DNA of 64,000 nt from Promethearchaeia archaeon (GCA_029856045.1 JAHQWG010000012.1:1-64000); one strand, 5' to 3'; shown: positions 6,447-31,953, counted from the stretch's first letter. Program-made: numbers and translations. Notes: generated from the letters alone by a model not told the origin.

Positions 6447-6546
6447 GCAGAAGTAGTCTAGTGGTAAGGCGCCGGCCTCGAGATTCTTAGAATCAGGAGA
6501 GCCGGTGTGTGTTTCACACGCGGGGGTTCAATTCCCTCCTTCTGCG
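6447..6546 (+). tRNA. tRNA-Ser(CGA) with 17-nt intron at 37/38 (6483..6499)
   Basis: Acceptor GCAGAAG/CTTCTGC plus G73; D-loop AGTGGTA; anticodon stem CCGGC/GCCGG with CGA at 6479-6481; long variable arm TGTGTG-TTT-CACACG; T-loop TTCAATT. No encoded CCA. Confidence 0.9.
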
Positions 6547-23276: not shown

Positions 23277-24596
23277 TTACTTTTCACCCTTAATTGGATT
23301 AATAATTTTTTTATTATTCATATATTTTTGTAAGACTTTTGGGATATTTATAGAATTATCCTCATTTTGATAATTTTCCAATATACAACATATAGTTCTT
23401 TCTGTCGCTATTGCAGTAGAATTTAATGTATGGATTATTTTATATCCTTTAGGATCACCTAGCTTCCCAAATCGAATATTTAATTTTCTTGCTTGATAAT
23501 CCAAACAATTGCTACATGACCCTAGTTCTCTATATGCATTTGAAGCGGGAAACCATCCTTCAAGGTCGTATTTTTTTGCAGCGTTATCATTCATTTCTCC
23601 AGAAGCAATATTTACAATTCTATATGGAATTTCTAGTTGTTTGAAAAGATCTTCAGTATTTTTGTTTAATTCCTCATGATAATTCCAAGAATCTTCGGGT
23701 TTGCAAAGTATAAATTGTTCAATTTTTTCAAATTGATGGACGCGAAAAATTCCTAATGTATCCTTACCATGAGCTCCAGCTTCCCTTCTAAAACATGTAG
23801 AGATTCCGGCATATTTTAAAGGTAATTGATTATTATGAATTACTTCATTTTGATGATATGCAGCAAGCGTTTGTTCAGCTGTAGCAATCATATATAAGTC
23901 TTGATCCTGAATCTTATATAATTGTTCTTCAAAATCAGCAAGTTCTGATGCTGCTTTAATTGAATTATATTTGATGAAAAATGGGGTCCATAATGGGATA
24001 AAACCTTTTGAAATTAAGAAAGCTAAAGCAAATTGCATTAATGCAAGATTCATTACAGCTATATCATTTTTTAGGAAATAAAATCTGGAACCAGAAATTT
24101 TAGATGCCCTTTTAATATCTGCACCATCAATAAGTTCAATTAAATTAACATGCGAAAGCGGATTAAATGAGAAATTTGGTAAATCACCAACAACTCTGAC
24201 CAATTCGTTTGAATCTTCATTCTCCCCTACAGGAACACTTTCATCAATTAAATTTCCAACTTTATAACGATACTCTTCTCGTTTTTCTAATAATTTATTA
24301 ACTTCATTTTCAATACTTAGAATTAAATTTCCAATTTCTTTTGAATTCTGAATAGTTGGTTCGATCTCTTCTGGGGATTTTTGGGCTAGCTTCATTGCAG
24401 ATATATCCTGAGAGAAGATATTTCTTTGACGTCTTAATTCGTTTAATTGTTGTAATTTTTTTCTATAAGTTGTATCATACTCGATAACTTTATCAACTAC
24501 ATTCGTATTTTTAAAGCGTTTTTTCTCGGATTCATATATCAAATCAATGTTTTTACGAAATTTCTCAATATCAAGCATTTTTTGTAATTGACCCAA
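23277..24596 (-). CDS. serS: Serine--tRNA ligase
   Basis: MLDI, ATAEQ, CFRREAGAHGKDTLGIFRVHQFEKIEQF, ELGSCSNC, HTLNST. Confidence 0.95.
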   Translation of the reverse strand: MGQLQKMLDIEKFRKNIDLIYESEKKRFKNTNVVDKVIEYDTTYRKKLQQLNELRRQRNIFSQDISAMKLAQKSPEEIEPTIQNSKEIGNLILSIENEVNKLLEKREEYRYKVGNLIDESVPVGENEDSNELVRVVGDLPNFSFNPLSHVNLIELIDGADIKRASKISGSRFYFLKNDIAVMNLALMQFALAFLISKGFIPLWTPFFIKYNSIKAASELADFEEQLYKIQDQDLYMIATAEQTLAAYHQNEVIHNNQLPLKYAGISTCFRREAGAHGKDTLGIFRVHQFEKIEQFILCKPEDSWNYHEELNKNTEDLFKQLEIPYRIVNIASGEMNDNAAKKYDLEGWFPASNAYRELGSCSNCLDYQARKLNIRFGKLGDPKGYKIIHTLNSTAIATERTICCILENYQNEDNSINIPKVLQKYMNNKKIINPIKGEK

Positions 24597-24762: not shown

Positions 24763-24951
24763 TTACTTTTTTTCGTTATTAATTCTTTTGCTTAGAGTCG
24801 CTCTAAGATAAGCGGTTTTAATTTTTTTTTCGGATAATCCTACCTTTTTAGCAATTGATTGGAGTAGGATCCTATTTTTTTTGCCTTTCAAGCTTTCCCT
24901 TTCCATAAATCTGTTTACAAAAGCTTCAATTGGGTCGTCTTCTAAACTCAT
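24763..24951 (-). CDS. Small basic hypothetical protein (HTH-like)
   Basis: 62 aa; IAKKVGLSEKKIK. Confidence 0.5.
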   Translation of the reverse strand: MSLEDDPIEAFVNRFMERESLKGKKNRILLQSIAKKVGLSEKKIKTAYLRATLSKRINNEKK

Positions 24952-25103
24952 TGTTAATTATAAAAATAAATAAATAAAGATAAATTTAATTTTTCTTTTT
25001 CTCAATTACAATTTTTATATTAAATCAAATTTTAAAAGAAAAACAATTTACATTATTTAATTTATAAAAAGTAAAAAACAGGTGAGTAATTAAGGGGAGA
25101 ATT

Positions 25104-27077
25104 ATGGAACAAGTTAGCATTGGAGTTTATGTTTGTGAGTGAGGGGTAAATATAGGGGGTTACGTAGATTGTGAAGCATTAAGAGACTTTGCAGAAACAC
25201 TACCAAATGTTACAGTGTCTAAAGTAAATAAATTTACATGTTCAGATCCAGGTCAAAAAATAATTAAAAATGATATTCAAGAGTTGGACTTAAAAAGAGT
25301 AGTAGTGGCGTCATGAACACCAAAAATTCACGAACCTACATACAAATCATTGTGTGCTGAGTCCGGATTAAATCCAAATTATTTTCAAATGGTAAATATA
25401 AGAGAACATTGTTCTTTTGTACATCAAGATAACAAAGAAAAAGCGACTCAAAAAGCAAAAAATTTAATTCGAGCAGGAGTAAATAGAGCACGTCTTTTAG
25501 AAACTGTGCCAATCAAAGAATTGAGCGTTGAAAAATCCGCGTTAGTTATAGGAGCTGGTATTGCTGGGATGAATGCTGCGTTAAATTTAGCAAATCATGG
25601 TATTAAGGTATATCTAGTTGAAAAAGAACCAACAATAGGCGGTAGAATGGCACAGTTAGATCGAATATTTCCAACAGATGATTGCGGAATATGAGTACTA
25701 GCACCAATTATGGTTAATGCATCAAAACATCCAAATATTGAATTAATGACATACTGTGAAGTTGTCGAATTTGGTGGATTCGCTGGCAATTATGAAATAA
25801 AAATTCTTAAAAAACCAAGATATGTTGATGAAAACAAATGTACGGGATGCGGTTTATGCACCACTAAATGTCCAATAGATGTGCCAGATGAATTTAATAG
25901 AGGAATTGGGCAGAGACATGCAATTTATATCCCATTTCCACAAGCAGTCCCGATTCTTGCTTTAATTGATAAAGAAGTATGCATTGACTGCAAACTTTGT
26001 GAAAAAGATTGTCCTGCTGAAGCAATTGATTATGAACAACAGCCAGAATATATCGATATTAAAGTGGGGGCTGTTATAATAGCAACTGGTTGGGATGAAT
26101 ATCCAATTATTGATAGTAATGAGTATGGTTATGGCATCTATCCGAATGTAATAACCCAAATAGAATTGGAAAGATTATTAAGTCCAATCGGTCCAACATA
26201 TGGTCATGTCCATAGAATTTCCGATTGTAAAACACCTAAAAATGTTGCTATGTTTCAGTGTGTTGGATCACGGAATTTAAAAGCTAATATATATTGTTCG
26301 GGTGTTTGTTGCATGGTTGCAATGAAAAATGCCCAACTTTTAAAACAAGAATATCCAGATATGGAAATCACAATTTTTTACATTGATATTAGAGCGACCG
26401 ATAAAGGGAATGAAGAGTATTATACCGCAGCGAGAAAAGCAGGAGTTAATTTCATAAAGAGTAATATTTCACGAGTGTATGAAGATCCGAAAACAAAAAA
26501 TTTGAAATTTTTGGTGCAAGATTCTTTAAGAGAATCATTGGGCATTCAAGAGAAGGAATATGATTTAATTGTTTTATCTACTGGAATCAATCCATCAAAA
26601 GGAACAAAAGAAGCCATTGCAGTATTGGGATTAGACAAAGGACCAAATGGATTTTTATCAGAAATTCATGGATGTCTCGCACCTCAAGAGACCAATAAGC
26701 GGGGTATATATATTTGTGGTTGTGCTGCAGGTCCAAAAAATATTCCTTATTCCGTATCTACTGCCTTAGCAGCTGCGAGTAAAGCATCGGCCCTAGTATT
26801 ATCAGGCAGAATAAGACAAGAATTAATGATTCCGGAAGTTGATCAGAATTTATGTATGGGATGCCACCGGTGTGAAAAATCATGTTTCTATCACGCTATT
26901 AAAGTAAATGAAGATGGTGTAGCCGAAGTTGATGAATTAAATTGTAAAGGATGTGGATTGTGTGTAACAGTCTGTCCAGCTAATGCATTAGATCTAAAAT
27001 ATTATAGGAATAATCAATTTAGAAGTGAGATATATGGAATCTGTGGAAATAATTATTCTATGGAGGATACAGTTTAA
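25104..27077 (+). CDS. hdrA: Heterodisulfide reductase subunit A, selenoprotein with 3 UGA (Sec13, Sec71, Sec197); 657 aa
   Basis: ATG at 25104 after GGGGAG. In-frame TGA at 25140 (VYVCE-U-GVNI), 25314 (VVVAS-U-TPKIHE) and 25692 (DDCGI-U-VLAP). Track ORFs 25350 and 25710 are in the same frame. GAGIAG and QCVGSR..YCSGVCC motifs; ferredoxin motifs. Confidence 0.92.
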
Positions 27078-27115
27078 ATCTAAGTAAATAATAAAAAATG
27101 AGGGGTTTAAAAAAA

Positions 27116-27541
27116 ATGGAAAGTAAAATAATAAATCAAAATCCTAAAATTATAATGTTTGCTTGCGAAAAATGAGGCTATGCAGCTGCAGATTTAACCG
27201 GAACTTGTAGAAAACAATATTCATCTGATATCTATATAATAAGAGTGAAATGTACAGGACGTGTAAGTTTGGATATAATCATAGAATCACTTCTCAATGG
27301 GGCAGATGGAGTTGCAATAGTAGGTTGACATGAGCATGAGTGTGAGTTCGGAGATGGTAATATGAATACATATAAGCATATTAAATTTTTAAAAAAACTT
27401 TTCAAACATATCGGAATATCTGAAAATAGAGTTGAATATTATTTTGTATCTGCTGCAGAGGTGGAAAATTTTCTTAATGCTACTACTGATATAATAGATA
27501 AAATAACAAAATTGCCTCCTTTACCAAAAAAATCTGAATAG
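27116..27541 (+). CDS. mvhD: MvhD/VhuD [2Fe-2S] subunit, selenoprotein with 2 UGA (Sec20, Sec71); 141 aa
   Basis: FACEK-U-GYAAADLTG (TGA 27173), IRVKCTGRV, GADGVAIVG-U-HEHECEFGDGN (TGA 27326), VSAAE; TAG stop. Absent from the ORF track. Confidence 0.92.
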
Positions 27542-27581
27542 AATGACCTTCATAAAAAAATTTTAGTTATGAAGTGACTCT
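27540..27581 (+). promoter_or_regulatory. SECIS element, eukaryote/Loki-type
   Basis: ATGAC-[CTTCATAA]-AAAAATTTTAG-[TTATGAAG]-TGAC: AUGA/GA kink-turn core, perfect 8-bp upper stem, A-rich apical loop, weak lower pairing AGA/TCT. Confidence 0.85.
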
Positions 27582-27634
27582 CCTTGCAAGGGATCTCGGA
27601 TTATTTTATATATAAATATTTAATTTGAAGAAAA

Positions 27635-29089
27635 ATGAAAGTGCAAGAGAATATTAATAGGAATGTTTTAAATGATGCATTAAATGTTATGAAATCATAT
27701 AGATTTAGAAATCTAATTGATTCTAAGGAAGACATTTTAAATTCAAGAATATATTCAGAAGAGGAATATTACGATTTCATTTTTACATTGTACGATGAAG
27801 ACAAATTAAAATATTCTCTCTTTAATTTTTTAAAAAATAAAGAAATTGCTTTTATTAAAGATTTAAAAGAATTTGGTAAAGAATTTAATCATGATTTAAA
27901 AAAGATCTTGAGCTTATGTTATCTTTTAAAATATGAAAATTTAATTGAAATTAAAAAAAATGAAAATACTTCAGAATTAGAAATTAATATTAAAAATAAG
28001 GATTTTATTAAAGTTAAACCAATATATGAACCTGTCAAGGTTATATTTGATTCAAAAATATGTTCTGGTTGTGGAATTTGTCAAGGAATTTGTCCTGTTA
28101 ATTGTATAAAAATTGATAACGGCGTTGGTATTATTGATGATAAGAAATGTATTAGTTGCGGGTTATGTTATACAGTTTGTCCAAGGTCATACTTACCAAT
28201 AGACATTTTAAACATATATATCTCTAATTCAAATAAATTTAAAAATCAATCAGATATTGGAGAATATTTGGAAGCATATTCTGCAAAAACAAAAGTTGAT
28301 GAGATATCCAAAATTTGCCAAGATGGTGGAATTGTAAGTTCTATTTTATATTATTTATTTGATACCCAACAAATTGATGGTGCAATTGGGGCTGGTATGA
28401 GTGAAACAATTTGGAAGCCAACACCACTTTTAATTAAAAATAAAGATGATATTAAAAAAACCTCAGGTACAAAATATGCAAATAATCCTAATTTGCAATT
28501 ATTAAATCAGCATATAGATTGTGAAAACTTGGCTGTAGTTGGAACTCCATGCATGATGCAAGCATTACTAAAATCTCATATCTATAATTTTAAAACTCCT
28601 AACCTAGATAAGATAAAATATAGAATTGGAATTTTTTGTATGGAAAGCTTTCCATATGAAAGTATTTTAGAAATTGCAAAAAGATTATCTATAAAAATTA
28701 ATGATATAAAGAAAATGGACATAAACAAAGGAAAATTCTTTTTATATTCAAGAACTGGAGAGACTAAAAATATCCCAATTAAAGAAATAACTTCATTGGC
28801 TAGAGAAGATTGCGAATATTGTTATGATTTAACATCAGAGTCTGCTGATATTTCTATAGGCTCAATTGGGTCTCCAGCAGGGTGGTCGACTGTTTTAGTC
28901 AGAACAAAAGTTGGAAAGGAAATTTTTAAGGGATTAGTCGATAAAAATTATATCGAATGGAAAGATCTTCAAGATGTTCAGCCAGGTTTAAACTTATTAT
29001 TAAAAATTGCTAAGACGAAAAGAAAGAATTGTACTGAACACATTAATAAGGTAAAAATGGAGAAAGAGTATATTCCTCAATATTATTAA
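27635..29089 (+). CDS. F420 hydrogenase/dehydrogenase beta subunit (FrhB/FdhB family) with 2x[4Fe-4S] domain and about 130-aa N-terminal extension
   Basis: CSGCGICQGICP, CISCGLCYTVCP, QDGGIVS, GTKY, VGTPC, GIFCMESF, CEYCYD, ADISIGSIGSPAGW. Confidence 0.9.
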   Translation: MKVQENINRNVLNDALNVMKSYRFRNLIDSKEDILNSRIYSEEEYYDFIFTLYDEDKLKYSLFNFLKNKEIAFIKDLKEFGKEFNHDLKKILSLCYLLKYENLIEIKKNENTSELEINIKNKDFIKVKPIYEPVKVIFDSKICSGCGICQGICPVNCIKIDNGVGIIDDKKCISCGLCYTVCPRSYLPIDILNIYISNSNKFKNQSDIGEYLEAYSAKTKVDEISKICQDGGIVSSILYYLFDTQQIDGAIGAGMSETIWKPTPLLIKNKDDIKKTSGTKYANNPNLQLLNQHIDCENLAVVGTPCMMQALLKSHIYNFKTPNLDKIKYRIGIFCMESFPYESILEIAKRLSIKINDIKKMDINKGKFFLYSRTGETKNIPIKEITSLAREDCEYCYDLTSESADISIGSIGSPAGWSTVLVRTKVGKEIFKGLVDKNYIEWKDLQDVQPGLNLLLKIAKTKRKNCTEHINKVKMEKEYIPQYY

Positions 29090-29157
29090 ACAAAATTATG
29101 ATAAGAATTATTAGAAATATTGAATTATCTTATAACTATTACAAGAATCTCTAATTA

Positions 29158-31953
29158 TTACTGAAGTAATATCTCTTTATCACGATATATCATTCCAAGG
29201 AAAGAGACTAAATCCATTACTTTTAGTTTTAAATCTCTATTTTCTTGTAGATAGCAATTAAAATGAGTTAAACATTTTGGACACGTTACTATCAAAAATT
29301 CGGCACCTGTATCAATAGCTTCATTAATTCTTTGACCTTGCAGTAGTTTTGAATAATTACTGCAAGAGATAAAGGCAGAAACTCCACAACAATTTGCATC
29401 TTGCCTGTTATTTATCATTTCTATTAATTCAATATTTGGTAAATTATTTAATATATCACGGGGGGCATCATAAACATTACTCAATCTGCCAAGTCTGCAG
29501 GGATCGTGGTAAGTTATTTTAATTTTATCCTGATTAGATAATTTCAAATCATCTAATAATCTTTCTTTTTGTATGTATTCGCTAATGTGATATACTTCAA
29601 AATCATATTCATTATCATCTTTAAAAAAGTCTTTATATACATACTTCCACATATAGTAACCTTCAGCACAGCTGCATATTATGGTTTTTACTCCTGCATC
29701 TTTATATAATTTTACGTTATATTTTGCTAGCTTTTCGAAAGTATCAAGATCTCCAGTCCAATAACAATCATGTCCACAACATCTCTCATCAGCTAAAACC
29801 ACTGGAGTGATATTATTTAGGTTTAGAATACCAATAGTCGTTTTGGGAATATTAAGATAATCAATATTGTTATGGTAGAGTGGAAATTGACATGTTCCAT
29901 AGTAATGTTTTGGTTTTTGGGAATTATTAGATGAATCATCATTTTTTTTATAGGGGATATCACAGTTAGAACAACTATTACAATTTAAGCATCGATTTGC
30001 TTCTTGAATTGCAATTTCTTCGGTAAATTCTAGTTCAATTTCATTAAAAGTGCTACATCTTTCTTCTATAGGGATAATAGGCAGATCATTTCTCTCTTCG
30101 AATATAACTTCCTTCTTTGGGATTGGTGATGTTTTAAATTGCTCTCTTTTAAATCTGTTTTCTCCTATATCAATCCCTCTTAGATATCGATCAATAGAAA
30201 TTGCTGCTTCATATCCATTAGCTATTGCTCTAATTGCTATTCCTTGACCCTCTGTAACATCTCCTCCAGCAAAAACACCAAGGATATTTGTTTCTAAAGT
30301 AGAGTCATCGAATTGAATTTTTCCTCTTTTATTAATTATCAACTCATTTTGAGCTGCCTTTAGGAGAGAATAATCAGCTTCTTGACCTATTGCTAATATT
30401 AACACATCAAGTTGTATTTTAAATTCAGAGCCTTCGATTTGAATAGGTTTTCTCCTTCCTGAGGAATCTGGTTCGCCAAGTTTCATTCGGATACATTCTA
30501 CTTTGGAAACATTTCCTTTTTTATCTCCAATTATTCTTACGGGATTAGTTAAGAATTGAAAATCTATATTTTCTTCTTTTGCCATTTCAATTTCCTCTTC
30601 TGCTGCAGGCATTTCTTTTTCCGAACGTCTATAAATAACAATTACTTTTTTTGCACCTAACCTTACGGCCGTTCTTGCTGAGTCCATAGCAACATTTCCA
30701 CCACCCGTTACTCCAATAATTTTATCTTTAATTATGATAGGAGATTTTTTAGATTCTTGATCTGTAGGTCTGAGATATTTGAGAAATTCTATTCCTCCTA
30801 TAACATTATTCAATTCTTCACCTTCGAGTCTCATACTTCGGCTACTCTGGAGTCCTATTGATATAAAAATCGCTTTATAACCCATATTTGTTAACTTCTT
30901 GAATGTCAAATCTGGTCCTATTGGAGTATTTGTTTTTATCTCAACGCCACTTTTTTCTATGAATTCAATTTCATAATCCAAAATATCATCAGGTAATCTA
31001 TATTCTGGGATTCCAACTCTCAACATACCTCCTTTAAAGGGGCTGGCTTCAAATATTGTTGGTTTGTATCCTTTCTTTGCGAGGAAATATGCTGCTGTTA
31101 AGCCAGCGGGTCCCGAACCAATAATAGCAACTTGTTCGTTTGTTTGTTCAAATGGTTGTAATTGACTTAAGGGTTGGTTTTTTATTTCCCAATCAGCAAC
31201 AAATCTTTTTAATGCCCTGATGGCAATTGGCTTATCTATAGTATTGCGATTACAACTTAATTCACATGGATGTGTACAAATTCGTCCACATACACCTGGA
31301 AGGGGATTTCTTTCCCGTATTAAATTGAGAGATTCTTGAAATTTTCCTTCTTTAATTAATGTAATATAACCTTGAACATCAATATTTGCAGGACAAGCTT
31401 GTGTGCACGGTGATATTCCATTCATAAATGGCAAGCAACCTATAAAATATGCTATTTCTCCTTTTCTAGCAATCTTTAAATCTGTATTGTCTAAAAAGCC
31501 AATTTTATTTACTAATTCTATTTGATCATTAGCCATTAAATACGGTAAATTTGAATATAATCGACCATGAGTTGTACATTGAAGCTTTTCCTCTTGAAAT
31601 GAGTCATTTTCTGTAGCAATATTTCGAAGTTTCAAAATAATATCGAGAAAATTAACACCAACGTTATCTTTAGACATTGGACAGTATTCTGAACAAAGTC
31701 CACAAGTTAAACAACTCCAAATATTTGAATTATTAATTGCCACTTCAACTGAGTAAGTAGAAAAATCTCTAACTAATTGCCTTGGATAAAACAATCCAAA
31801 TGGAGAGAGGGGGCATATATTAATACAACGATTACAATCATAACAATAGTAAGAGGATTTTAACAACTCAGACATTTTTTCAATACCTTTATGTTCAATA
31901 TTTAAACTCGTTCCTATTGAAGTTTTACTTTTAGTTTTCATTTTAAAAATCAT
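29158..31953 (-). CDS. HdrD-like protein (HdrC-like Fe-S + 2 CCG domains) with inserted GltD/NfnB-like FAD/NAD(P) module
   Basis: CYDCNRCINICP, CLTCGLCSEYCP, YFIGC | PCTQACP, CGRICTHPCE, GSGPAG, GGGNVAMD, YRR, EANRCLNC | ERCCG, CAEG, YHDPCRLGR, CCG, TCPKC. Confidence 0.85.
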   Translation of the reverse strand: MIFKMKTKSKTSIGTSLNIEHKGIEKMSELLKSSYYCYDCNRCINICPLSPFGLFYPRQLVRDFSTYSVEVAINNSNIWSCLTCGLCSEYCPMSKDNVGVNFLDIILKLRNIATENDSFQEEKLQCTTHGRLYSNLPYLMANDQIELVNKIGFLDNTDLKIARKGEIAYFIGCLPFMNGISPCTQACPANIDVQGYITLIKEGKFQESLNLIRERNPLPGVCGRICTHPCELSCNRNTIDKPIAIRALKRFVADWEIKNQPLSQLQPFEQTNEQVAIIGSGPAGLTAAYFLAKKGYKPTIFEASPFKGGMLRVGIPEYRLPDDILDYEIEFIEKSGVEIKTNTPIGPDLTFKKLTNMGYKAIFISIGLQSSRSMRLEGEELNNVIGGIEFLKYLRPTDQESKKSPIIIKDKIIGVTGGGNVAMDSARTAVRLGAKKVIVIYRRSEKEMPAAEEEIEMAKEENIDFQFLTNPVRIIGDKKGNVSKVECIRMKLGEPDSSGRRKPIQIEGSEFKIQLDVLILAIGQEADYSLLKAAQNELIINKRGKIQFDDSTLETNILGVFAGGDVTEGQGIAIRAIANGYEAAISIDRYLRGIDIGENRFKREQFKTSPIPKKEVIFEERNDLPIIPIEERCSTFNEIELEFTEEIAIQEANRCLNCNSCSNCDIPYKKNDDSSNNSQKPKHYYGTCQFPLYHNNIDYLNIPKTTIGILNLNNITPVVLADERCCGHDCYWTGDLDTFEKLAKYNVKLYKDAGVKTIICSCAEGYYMWKYVYKDFFKDDNEYDFEVYHISEYIQKERLLDDLKLSNQDKIKITYHDPCRLGRLSNVYDAPRDILNNLPNIELIEMINNRQDANCCGVSAFISCSNYSKLLQGQRINEAIDTGAEFLIVTCPKCLTHFNCYLQENRDLKLKVMDLVSFLGMIYRDKEILLQ

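Follow-up and report, generated by a model that had tools for sequence, protein, structure and literature searches.

Positions 27531 to 27602 of the window, the 64,000-nt stretch of Promethearchaeia archaeon DNA under analysis, very probably specify, judging by sequence comparison, a Lokiarchaeial eukaryote-like SECIS element ("lokiSECIS") on an hdrA-mvhD(-frhB) transcript. Elements of this kind have been known since 2016, and the window copy, as would be expected in a Lokiarchaeion that uses Sec, is one well-documented example more. The fold given for this interval by unconstrained MFE prediction (approximately -13 kcal/mol) comprises three helices: a closing helix I, a predicted kink-turn arm consisting of helix II and its apical loop, and an accessory hairpin 2.

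A lokiSECIS-type element behind the hdrA-mvhD pair

The cistrons hdrA and mvhD contain five in-frame UGA (Sec) codons, three of them in hdrA, at 25140-42, 25314-16, and 25692-94 (codons 13, 71, and 197), and two in mvhD, at 27173-75 and 27326-28 (codons 20 and 71). The break of the open reading frame at 25694 is consistent with the UGA positions in hdrA. A spacer of 38 nt separates the two genes, and a single lokiSECIS-type element is found near the five codons of both cistrons, which lie 2403, 2229, 1851, 370, and 217 nt upstream of it. Since the start of the following frhB/fdhB-like gene comes 33 nt after its end, the element is intercistronic (Table 1). On the opposite strand, approximately 500 bp upstream of hdrA, the window also carries a gene for seryl-tRNA synthetase (23277-24596, -), a neighborhood that may be coincidental; seryl-tRNA synthetase loads serine onto tRNA-Sec.

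Table 1. Positions of the SECIS element, its parts, and the neighboring genes. Positions are those of the window unless another contig is given.
Feature	Position	Strand	Basis or remark
hdrA	25104..27077	+	657 codons, stop UAA; open frame with TGA read as U, Fer4 domains in the C-terminal part
mvhD/vhuD/frhD	27116..27541	+	141 codons, stop UAG at 27539-41; PF02662 (FlpD), E = 2.4e-39
Whole SECIS element (probable)	27531..27602	+	Helix I, kink-turn arm (helix II and apical loop), hairpin 2; unconstrained MFE, CM R1, covariation
Helix I, 5' strand, AAUCUGAA	27531..27538	+	Last sense codons of mvhD; partner 27594-27602
Stop codon UAG, also 5' strand of the kink-turn C-stem	27539..27541	+	Comparative alignment
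Three-nucleotide bulge A-A-U (27542-44), then G27545 and A27546 of the AUGA core	27542..27546	+	AUGA near-invariant
Helix II, 5' strand: non-Watson-Crick C27547 at the base and eight perfect pairs above it	27547..27555	+	Sequence
Apical loop, AAAAAUUUUAG	27556..27566	+	11 nt, the first five A; matches the lokiSECIS description
Helix II, 3' strand	27567..27575	+	Sequence and covariation; U27575 last
GA of the core (27576-77), then C27578, U27579, and C27580 as 3' strand of the C-stem	27576..27580	+	
Hairpin 2	27581..27593	+	UCCUU 27581-85, GCA 27586-88, AGGGA 27589-93; G+C-rich accessory arm, conserved loop G-C
Helix I, 3' strand, UC-UCGGAUU	27594..27602	+	MFE folds, CM R1, covariation
frhB/fdhB-like gene	27635..29089	+	PF04432 and PF04422; starts 33 nt past the SECIS element
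Sister elements behind hdrA-mvhD	C32:28782-28867, C46:85349-85433, C44:56609-56703		CM R1

Within the unconstrained MFE fold, AAUCUGA (27531-37) pairs with UCGGAUU (27596-602) in helix I. The C-stem consists of G27541-C27578 and A27540-U27579, with a mismatch of U27539 and C27580 in the window. A27542 separates the stop codon from the AUGA (27543-46), which is directly 5' of the stem and is followed by C27547. This nucleotide faces U27575 at the base of helix II, above which CUUCAUAA (27548-55) and UUAUGAAG (27567-74) form a perfect 8-bp stem of uninterrupted, A/U-rich pairs. G27545 and A27546 are predicted to engage A27577 and G27576 in sheared pairs.

According to Mariotti et al. (2016; PMC4989117), the stem of a lokiSECIS has 9 bp and is flanked by AUGA on the 5' side and by GA or AA on the 3' side. 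The apical loop of 11 nt opens with five nucleotides, A in most cases, and closes with an ultraconserved G that usually comes after an A. The element lies near a stop codon, and HdrA-VhuD tandems carry one such element, after VhuD (PMC4989117). Every feature stated there was found in the window: the AUGA, a stem of nine positions, an 11-nt loop (AAAAAUUUUAG) with five leading A and a terminal AG, GA at 27576-77 (relatives have GA in 23 cases and AA in 43), and the placement, the element being the only one behind its HdrA-VhuD tandem, as is also the case for three further pairs in the genome. An earlier note on this DNA had described a SECIS immediately after the mvhD stop, with an AUGAC/UGAC core and a perfect 8-bp stem, followed by a second hairpin, UCCUU-GCA-AGGGA; both can be read directly from the sequence, at 27543-27578 and 27581-93, and the end coordinate given then was exact. 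Its "AAA loop" was imprecise: the loop is the 11-nt AAAAAUUUUAG with five leading A and not one of three nucleotides. The attribution to the eukaryotic/Lokiarchaeal architecture, and not to the methanogen or bacterial type, agrees with the full set of lokiSECIS features in PMC4989117, with the gene context, and with the Sec machinery of the genome, and the shortness of the stem relative to eukaryotic helix II, on which the note remarked, is worded in the same way in that paper. The attribution is supported, while the membership of hairpin 2 and of a closing helix in the element, and its prior publication, had been overlooked.

In PMC11227280 (Huang et al., 2024), the structure of Asgard hdrA/frhD bears the alternative name eSECIS-like type I. 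The supplement of that paper contains Sec-containing FrhD proteins from GCA_019058135, GCA_019058215, GCA_023128565, and GCA_023127985 (Lokiarchaeia), which differ from the MvhD of the window by few residues. The exact protein and locus of the window are absent from the PMC11227280 catalogue, in which these four congeners are present. Because such near-identical proteins are labeled Lokiarchaeia in the supplement, the host is taken to be a Lokiarchaeion of an already surveyed genus.

Covariation of all helices and a predicted kink-turn core

More than 100 related elements were compared overall, with 39 flanks aligned by MAFFT, 67 elements aligned by covariance model (CM), and 40 elements selected on their core among the subsets. 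In the flanks of mvhD orthologues, one conserved box, CCGAA, stands right in front of the stop codon, and another, UUCGG, follows hairpin 2; the two boxes pair. Compensatory variants of this helix I in other genera include CCAAA/UUUGG, GCGAA/UUCGC, CCGAC/GUCGG, AUCGA/UCGAU, GAUUAUU/AAUAAUC, and GUCGAA/UUCGAC. In one group of orthologues the coding sequence ends earlier, so that the CCGAAU box falls in the untranslated region; its conservation even there argues for a constraint at the RNA level. In the ungapped MAFFT alignment of the 39 orthologous flanks, 90.2% of the cells were paired and 17 of 21 pairs changed on both sides, a degree of pairing reached by none of 500 shuffles, with slid controls at 25 to 60%. 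The 67 CM-aligned elements gave 92.4% paired cells (93% in helix I, 94% in helix II, and 89% in hairpin 2) and changes on both sides at all 21 pairs, figures that lean toward the model structure to which this alignment was fitted and that, the sequences being kin, overstate independence and significance. Changes on both sides were seen at 9/9 pairs of helix II, and one pair of hairpin 2 was CG in 37 elements and UA in 24. Conservation with compensatory changes extended across at least 13 genera. The earlier note had made its proposal depend on covariation in orthologous loci, and all helices do covary.

Column statistics of the same 67 elements revealed a set of near-invariant positions around the helices. 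A G two bases before the AUGA was present in 67/67, the AUGA itself in 66 to 67, and, in the R-A-C motif 3' of helix II, A71 and C73 in 67/67 each. The G-C pair of the C-stem was likewise invariant (67/67), the next pair outward being AU in 51 elements and UA in 6, and the first position of helix II was a nonstandard pair in 23 of the 67. In the apical loop, columns 35 to 37 were A in 66 to 67 elements and column 44 was G in 66, with a conserved terminal UAG; the loop of hairpin 2 had its G in 66 elements, followed by C (55) or U (11). A simple kink-turn consists of a C-stem closed by a G-C pair, a three-base bulge, tandem G-A/A-G pairs, and an NC stem. In the relatives, a G-C pair closes the C-stem, R-A-U forms the bulge, and tandem G-A and A-G(A) lead into helix II, from which we infer that the G-N-AUGA...GA-C core would fold as a canonical kink-turn, with tandem sheared G-A pairs stacked beneath helix II.

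A covariance model from relatives and its matches

The covariance-model check over relatives that the earlier note had suggested was made with CM R1, which was derived from 39 aligned 3' flanks of MvhD orthologues from other genera of the same class, with the window left out; the source proteins were at most 66% identical to the MvhD of the window. R1 gave the element, at 27528-27611, a score of 62.3 bits (E = 1.4e-11) and reached no more than 16.6 bits anywhere else in the window. Rfam returned no SECIS family, either at gathering score in the whole window or at E up to 10 in 27000-27800, where the matches were chance ones, and standard SECIS tools likewise miss lokiSECIS elements according to PMC4989117.

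In the whole genome, R1 identified four elements behind pairs of hdrA (three to four UGA) and mvhD (two UGA), that of the window included. A further match follows vhuU, whose stop codon is apparently supplied by the UGA within AUGA, a situation described for VhuU.1 in PMC4989117. Other elements follow a gene for a 154-residue GCUUE protein, a gene for a small membrane protein ending in GGGGUC, and selD, the last in type II form. Sister elements, in this genome and in relatives, were found only behind genes with in-frame UGA. R1 had matches in all 25 other genomes of the family (2 to 8 in each) and, under strict filters, in 0 of 125 genomes of other Asgard families, the model being family-specific; class-level relatives fetched as loci matched it at 34 to 43 bits.

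The genome contains the set of genes used to define lokiSECIS hosts, i.e., tRNA-Sec, PSTK, SepSecS, SelB/EFSec, and SPS. The gene for tRNA-Sec is at C1:2268-2356 (61 bits versus a cut-off of 47) and adjoins that for SepSecS (483 bits). SelB/EFSec, encoded from C1:5689 onward, scored 268 bits, and PSTK scored 147 bits (E = 5.7e-43), below the curated family cut-off of 290.5 bits; SelD has one in-frame TGA. In the window, a 100-nt match to the Rfam tRNA family at 6447-6546 (+; 50.2 bits) was not called by ARAGORN and is probably an intron-containing tRNA; as a candidate for tRNA-Sec it was rejected, scoring only 31 bits with the tRNA-Sec model.

Several observations were made in passing on genes that bear these elements. 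The selD gene with Sec (C44:100694-101497, -) is followed by a type II SECIS with a 10-bp closing helix, UAAUGAUGAC/GUCAUCAUUA, that starts from the stop codon; its junction also bears small hairpins on the 3' side. The GCUUE/DUU proteins, of approximately 155 residues, have two adjacent in-frame UGA codons, and a lokiSECIS follows each gene; the copy in this genome is at C32 ~26950-27417 (+), with its SECIS at C32:27407-27495, and relatives occur at L146:522-989:+ and in L122, L135, L138, L140, L143, and L159. This family had no match in Pfam, and a 16-residue stretch of the copy in this genome, with U or X at the Sec positions, was absent from the seven selenoprotein family files of PMC11227280, which makes it a candidate for an unreported selenoprotein family. 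Small single-pass membrane proteins with GGGGU[C/A] or SGU and a downstream lokiSECIS, likewise with no Pfam match, are encoded at C10:2343-2511 (+), with the SECIS at C10:2546-2580, and in L151 and L156. Zinc-ribbon-like proteins of 37 residues (CxxC...CxxC) ending in [FY]KU (L154:851-961:+, L155:856-966:+, L158:218-328:-, and L132) have a UGA directly before UAA/UAG, with a lokiSECIS some 30 nt downstream, so that the UGA encodes a C-terminal Sec or is the stop. An 89-residue membrane protein (L123:199-465:-) with the motif FUPVC and no Pfam match also has a lokiSECIS downstream.

Three mvhD flanks deserve separate mention. In two distant UGA-containing mvhD loci, L071 (G010:C11) and L073 (G148:C129), the three-helix layout of closing helix, long arm with an A-rich loop, and G+C-rich side hairpin is apparently kept, as judged by eye, with AAAU...AA and CUAU...AGA, respectively, in place of the AUGA/GA core; these may be divergent SECIS forms. 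In L011 (G032:C10), from the same genus as the window, eight A's instead of seven precede UCUGAAUAG, either as a real variant or through an assembly slip, and the mvhD frame appears to be shifted past the UAG to a UAA that begins within helix II and extends into the apical loop.

Hairpin 2 and the predicted three-way junction across gene families

Twenty-six genomes of the family were searched with a pattern of the core (ATGA, N9, AAAA, N5, AG, N9, RAC), and 40 hits were kept on helix II pairing at no fewer than 7/9 positions; the G at -2 and hairpin 2 were outside the pattern. These 40 elements stand behind at least eight gene families, namely, vhuU, selD, prxL (PF00578), mvhD paralogues, the GCUUE family, the 37-residue zinc-ribbon proteins ending in FKU, and two kinds of small membrane proteins. 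The G at -2 was present in 40/40, and the next C-stem pair was standard in 30/40 (AU in 14, UA in 8, GC in 5, with GU also seen). All 40 elements have, no more than 5 nt after the RAC, the start of a perfect hairpin of 4 bp or more, whereas shuffled flanks reach 19.9 on average and 29 at most; one with at least two G-C pairs was found in 39 (shuffled mean, 2.25; maximum, 6); in 30 of the 40 the loop contains GC. Constrained MFE folding returned the full three-way junction for 72% of the core-selected elements versus 28% of the shuffles. By this comparison of sequences, hairpin 2 is an integral, universal arm of these elements in the lokiarchaeal family. Complementarity between its loop and the apical loop, as for a kissing interaction, was looked for and not seen.

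The consensus set out in the texts of PMC4989117 and PMC11227280 consists of core, upper stem, and loop, and in their running text no mention was found of helix I, the C-stem with its invariant G-C pair, or hairpin 2. The running text of one lokiSECIS paper does not contain the words lower stem, internal loop, or helix, and lower-stem base pairs are mentioned, in the text portions of the lokiSECIS literature, only for frhA and selD. A 2026 review (PMC13188914) repeats the published model.

Alternative explanations

Taken by itself, the folding energy of the element is unremarkable against dinucleotide shuffles (z = -0.59 and -0.76), so that stability alone cannot support it, and a loose sequence pattern that ignores pairing occurs twice in the window, where 0.45 matches are expected. 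A chance hairpin in A+T-rich DNA would explain both results. Once pairing is required, the expectation falls to about 0.008 matches per 64-kb window: a strict scan ([AG]UGA, a stem of nine positions with at least 8/9 paired, an 11-nt loop AAA...G, and [GA]A) found 4 sites in the 3.34-Mb genome, compared with 0 to 1 (mean, approximately 0.4) in Markov-1 simulated genomes of equal size. Even these counts are underestimates, because elements with variant loops are missed; three hdrA-mvhD elements escaped the strict scan, having loops that start with GAAAA or AUAAA or being of type II. The comparative data, i.e., conservation with compensatory changes in at least 13 genera, refute chance as an origin, and we give it practically no weight.

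Two readings that accept a conserved structure and dispense with a role in Sec insertion fare only slightly better. The simple kink-turn layout of the core, its position 33 nt before the next gene start, and a genome with just two L7Ae-family genes, at C51:120459-120701 and C35:130055-130336 and presumably for L7Ae and L30e, and no SBP2-like extra copy would all suit a generic kink-turn that serves, for example, as an L7Ae/L30e regulatory site and governs how the downstream frhB-like cistron is translated or how stable it is. Such a site would nevertheless need neither the A-rich loop nor the constant geometry of 9 + 11 positions, and the signature recurs behind UGA genes of at least eight unrelated families whose downstream neighbors differ; we therefore hold this explanation to be very unlikely. 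Somewhat less probable still is an mRNA 3'-end, processing, or stabilizing hairpin of a terminator-like kind that ends the hdrA-mvhD unit, although the element comes directly after a stop codon and lies within an A+T-rich spacer, with a U-rich stretch behind it. A terminator scan of 24800-29300 found nothing, the same element also precedes co-directional genes, and the invariant unpaired bases (G-N-AUGA, AAA, UAG, RA-C, and the G of the hairpin 2 loop) are unexpected for a terminator.

Proposed mechanism and implications

For the element as a lokiSECIS, we propose that the kink-turn and the A-rich apical loop would be recognized by an L7Ae-family protein or by SelB/EFSec itself, and that Sec-tRNA(Sec) would then be delivered to ribosomes paused at the five upstream UGA codons. 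The kink-turn arm would grow from a three-way junction with helix I and hairpin 2; the latter might, as a guess, offer a second site for recognition or buttress the structure. The last codons and the stop belong to the fold, so that every ribosome that terminates on mvhD would have to open the junction, in keeping with the suggestion of PMC4989117 that UGA codons close by escape recoding.

We put forward tentatively, as a possibility and not as an expectation, that the lokiarchaeal SECIS, in contrast to the simple stem-loop of the published consensus models and of the one heterologous test, is a kink-turn arm on a three-way junction whose closing helix is universal in all selenoprotein gene families of this lokiarchaeal family and in which the extra hairpin and the closing helix may be required for function, e.g., as the docking site of a SECIS-binding factor, and which may be a composite of both SECIS types. 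A composite with the methanogen type is conceivable because helix I and hairpin 2 echo its basal stem, internal loop, and G+C-rich upper stem. If the extra parts were required, minimal constructs would show no activity. In Methanococcus maripaludis, a lokiarchaeal vhuU SECIS construct gave background activity (21.1 versus 22.1 mU/mg for the control with no SECIS; PMC11881835 and its supplement), and its reported RNAfold energy was -6.9 kcal/mol (PMC11881835). Four of five vhuU elements folded with their flanks at approximately -20 to -23 kcal/mol; with these values and the -13 kcal/mol of the window element set against -6.9 kcal/mol, the tested construct resembles a bare stem-loop and not the junction. 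For reconstitution of lokiarchaeal Sec insertion, or for a search for the binding protein, the whole junction would be advisable over a minimal stem-loop, and the full-length definition (27531-27602) supplies a testable construct for how archaea read a SECIS without SBP2.

Comparison with known systems

A counterpart from the same gene is the VhuD SECIS of Methanococcales and Methanopyrus (GAA_A type with AUGA...GAC/AAC; PMC4989117), with which the lokiarchaeal element shares the host gene, the AUGA, the RAC (a trinucleotide GAC/AAC is noted for the methanococcal VhuD SECIS in PMC4989117), an extra basal stem, and two Sec codons. The lokiarchaeal element differs in that its helix II has neither a GAA/A internal loop nor G-C clamps and in that its sole G+C-rich stem is the separate hairpin 2. 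Correspondingly, the methanogen GAA_A signature (GAA/A loop and G-C clamps) is absent from helix II, and 27000-27800 has no match to the archaeal SECIS family of Rfam. A GAA_A-like reading of the junction beside hairpin 2 was considered and rejected, since the 3' side has U instead of A and so does not form the methanogen core. The Rfam search, on which the comparison with bacteria was based, gave no bacterial SECIS family at threshold in the window.

With the eukaryotic SECIS of type I (RF00031 and relatives), the common ground is the AUGA...GA core with a lower helix beneath it, unpaired A's in the 5' part of the apical loop, and a position 3' of the coding sequence from which the element would act at a distance on several UGA codons. 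In the lokiarchaeal element, by contrast, helix II is shorter (nine positions), the internal loop carries an entire conserved hairpin in its 3' strand, and the element, which no Rfam SECIS model matches, overlaps the stop codon and sits between cistrons. SBP2 is absent here according to the literature, none having been reported in archaea, Asgard included. Simple kink-turns such as Kt-7 and box C/D, which are bound by proteins of the L7Ae family, have in common with it a C-stem ending in G-C, a 3-nt bulge, tandem G-A/A-G pairs, and, in many cases, a non-Watson-Crick pair at the first position of the NC stem. The lokiarchaeal C-stem is just 2 to 3 bp long, however, and opens straight into a three-way junction, and its NC stem is constant in length and carries an A-rich loop; the kink-turn in this case is predicted from the sequence.

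The nearest of all known systems is the lokiSECIS of HdrA-VhuD pairs, with the same core, stem, and loop, the same stop-proximal site overlapping the coding sequence, a multi-Sec HdrA next to a di-Sec VhuD, and a Lokiarchaeion as host. In the published features there is no difference, and to these the window element adds a C-stem with an invariant G-C pair, helix I, and a G+C-rich hairpin.
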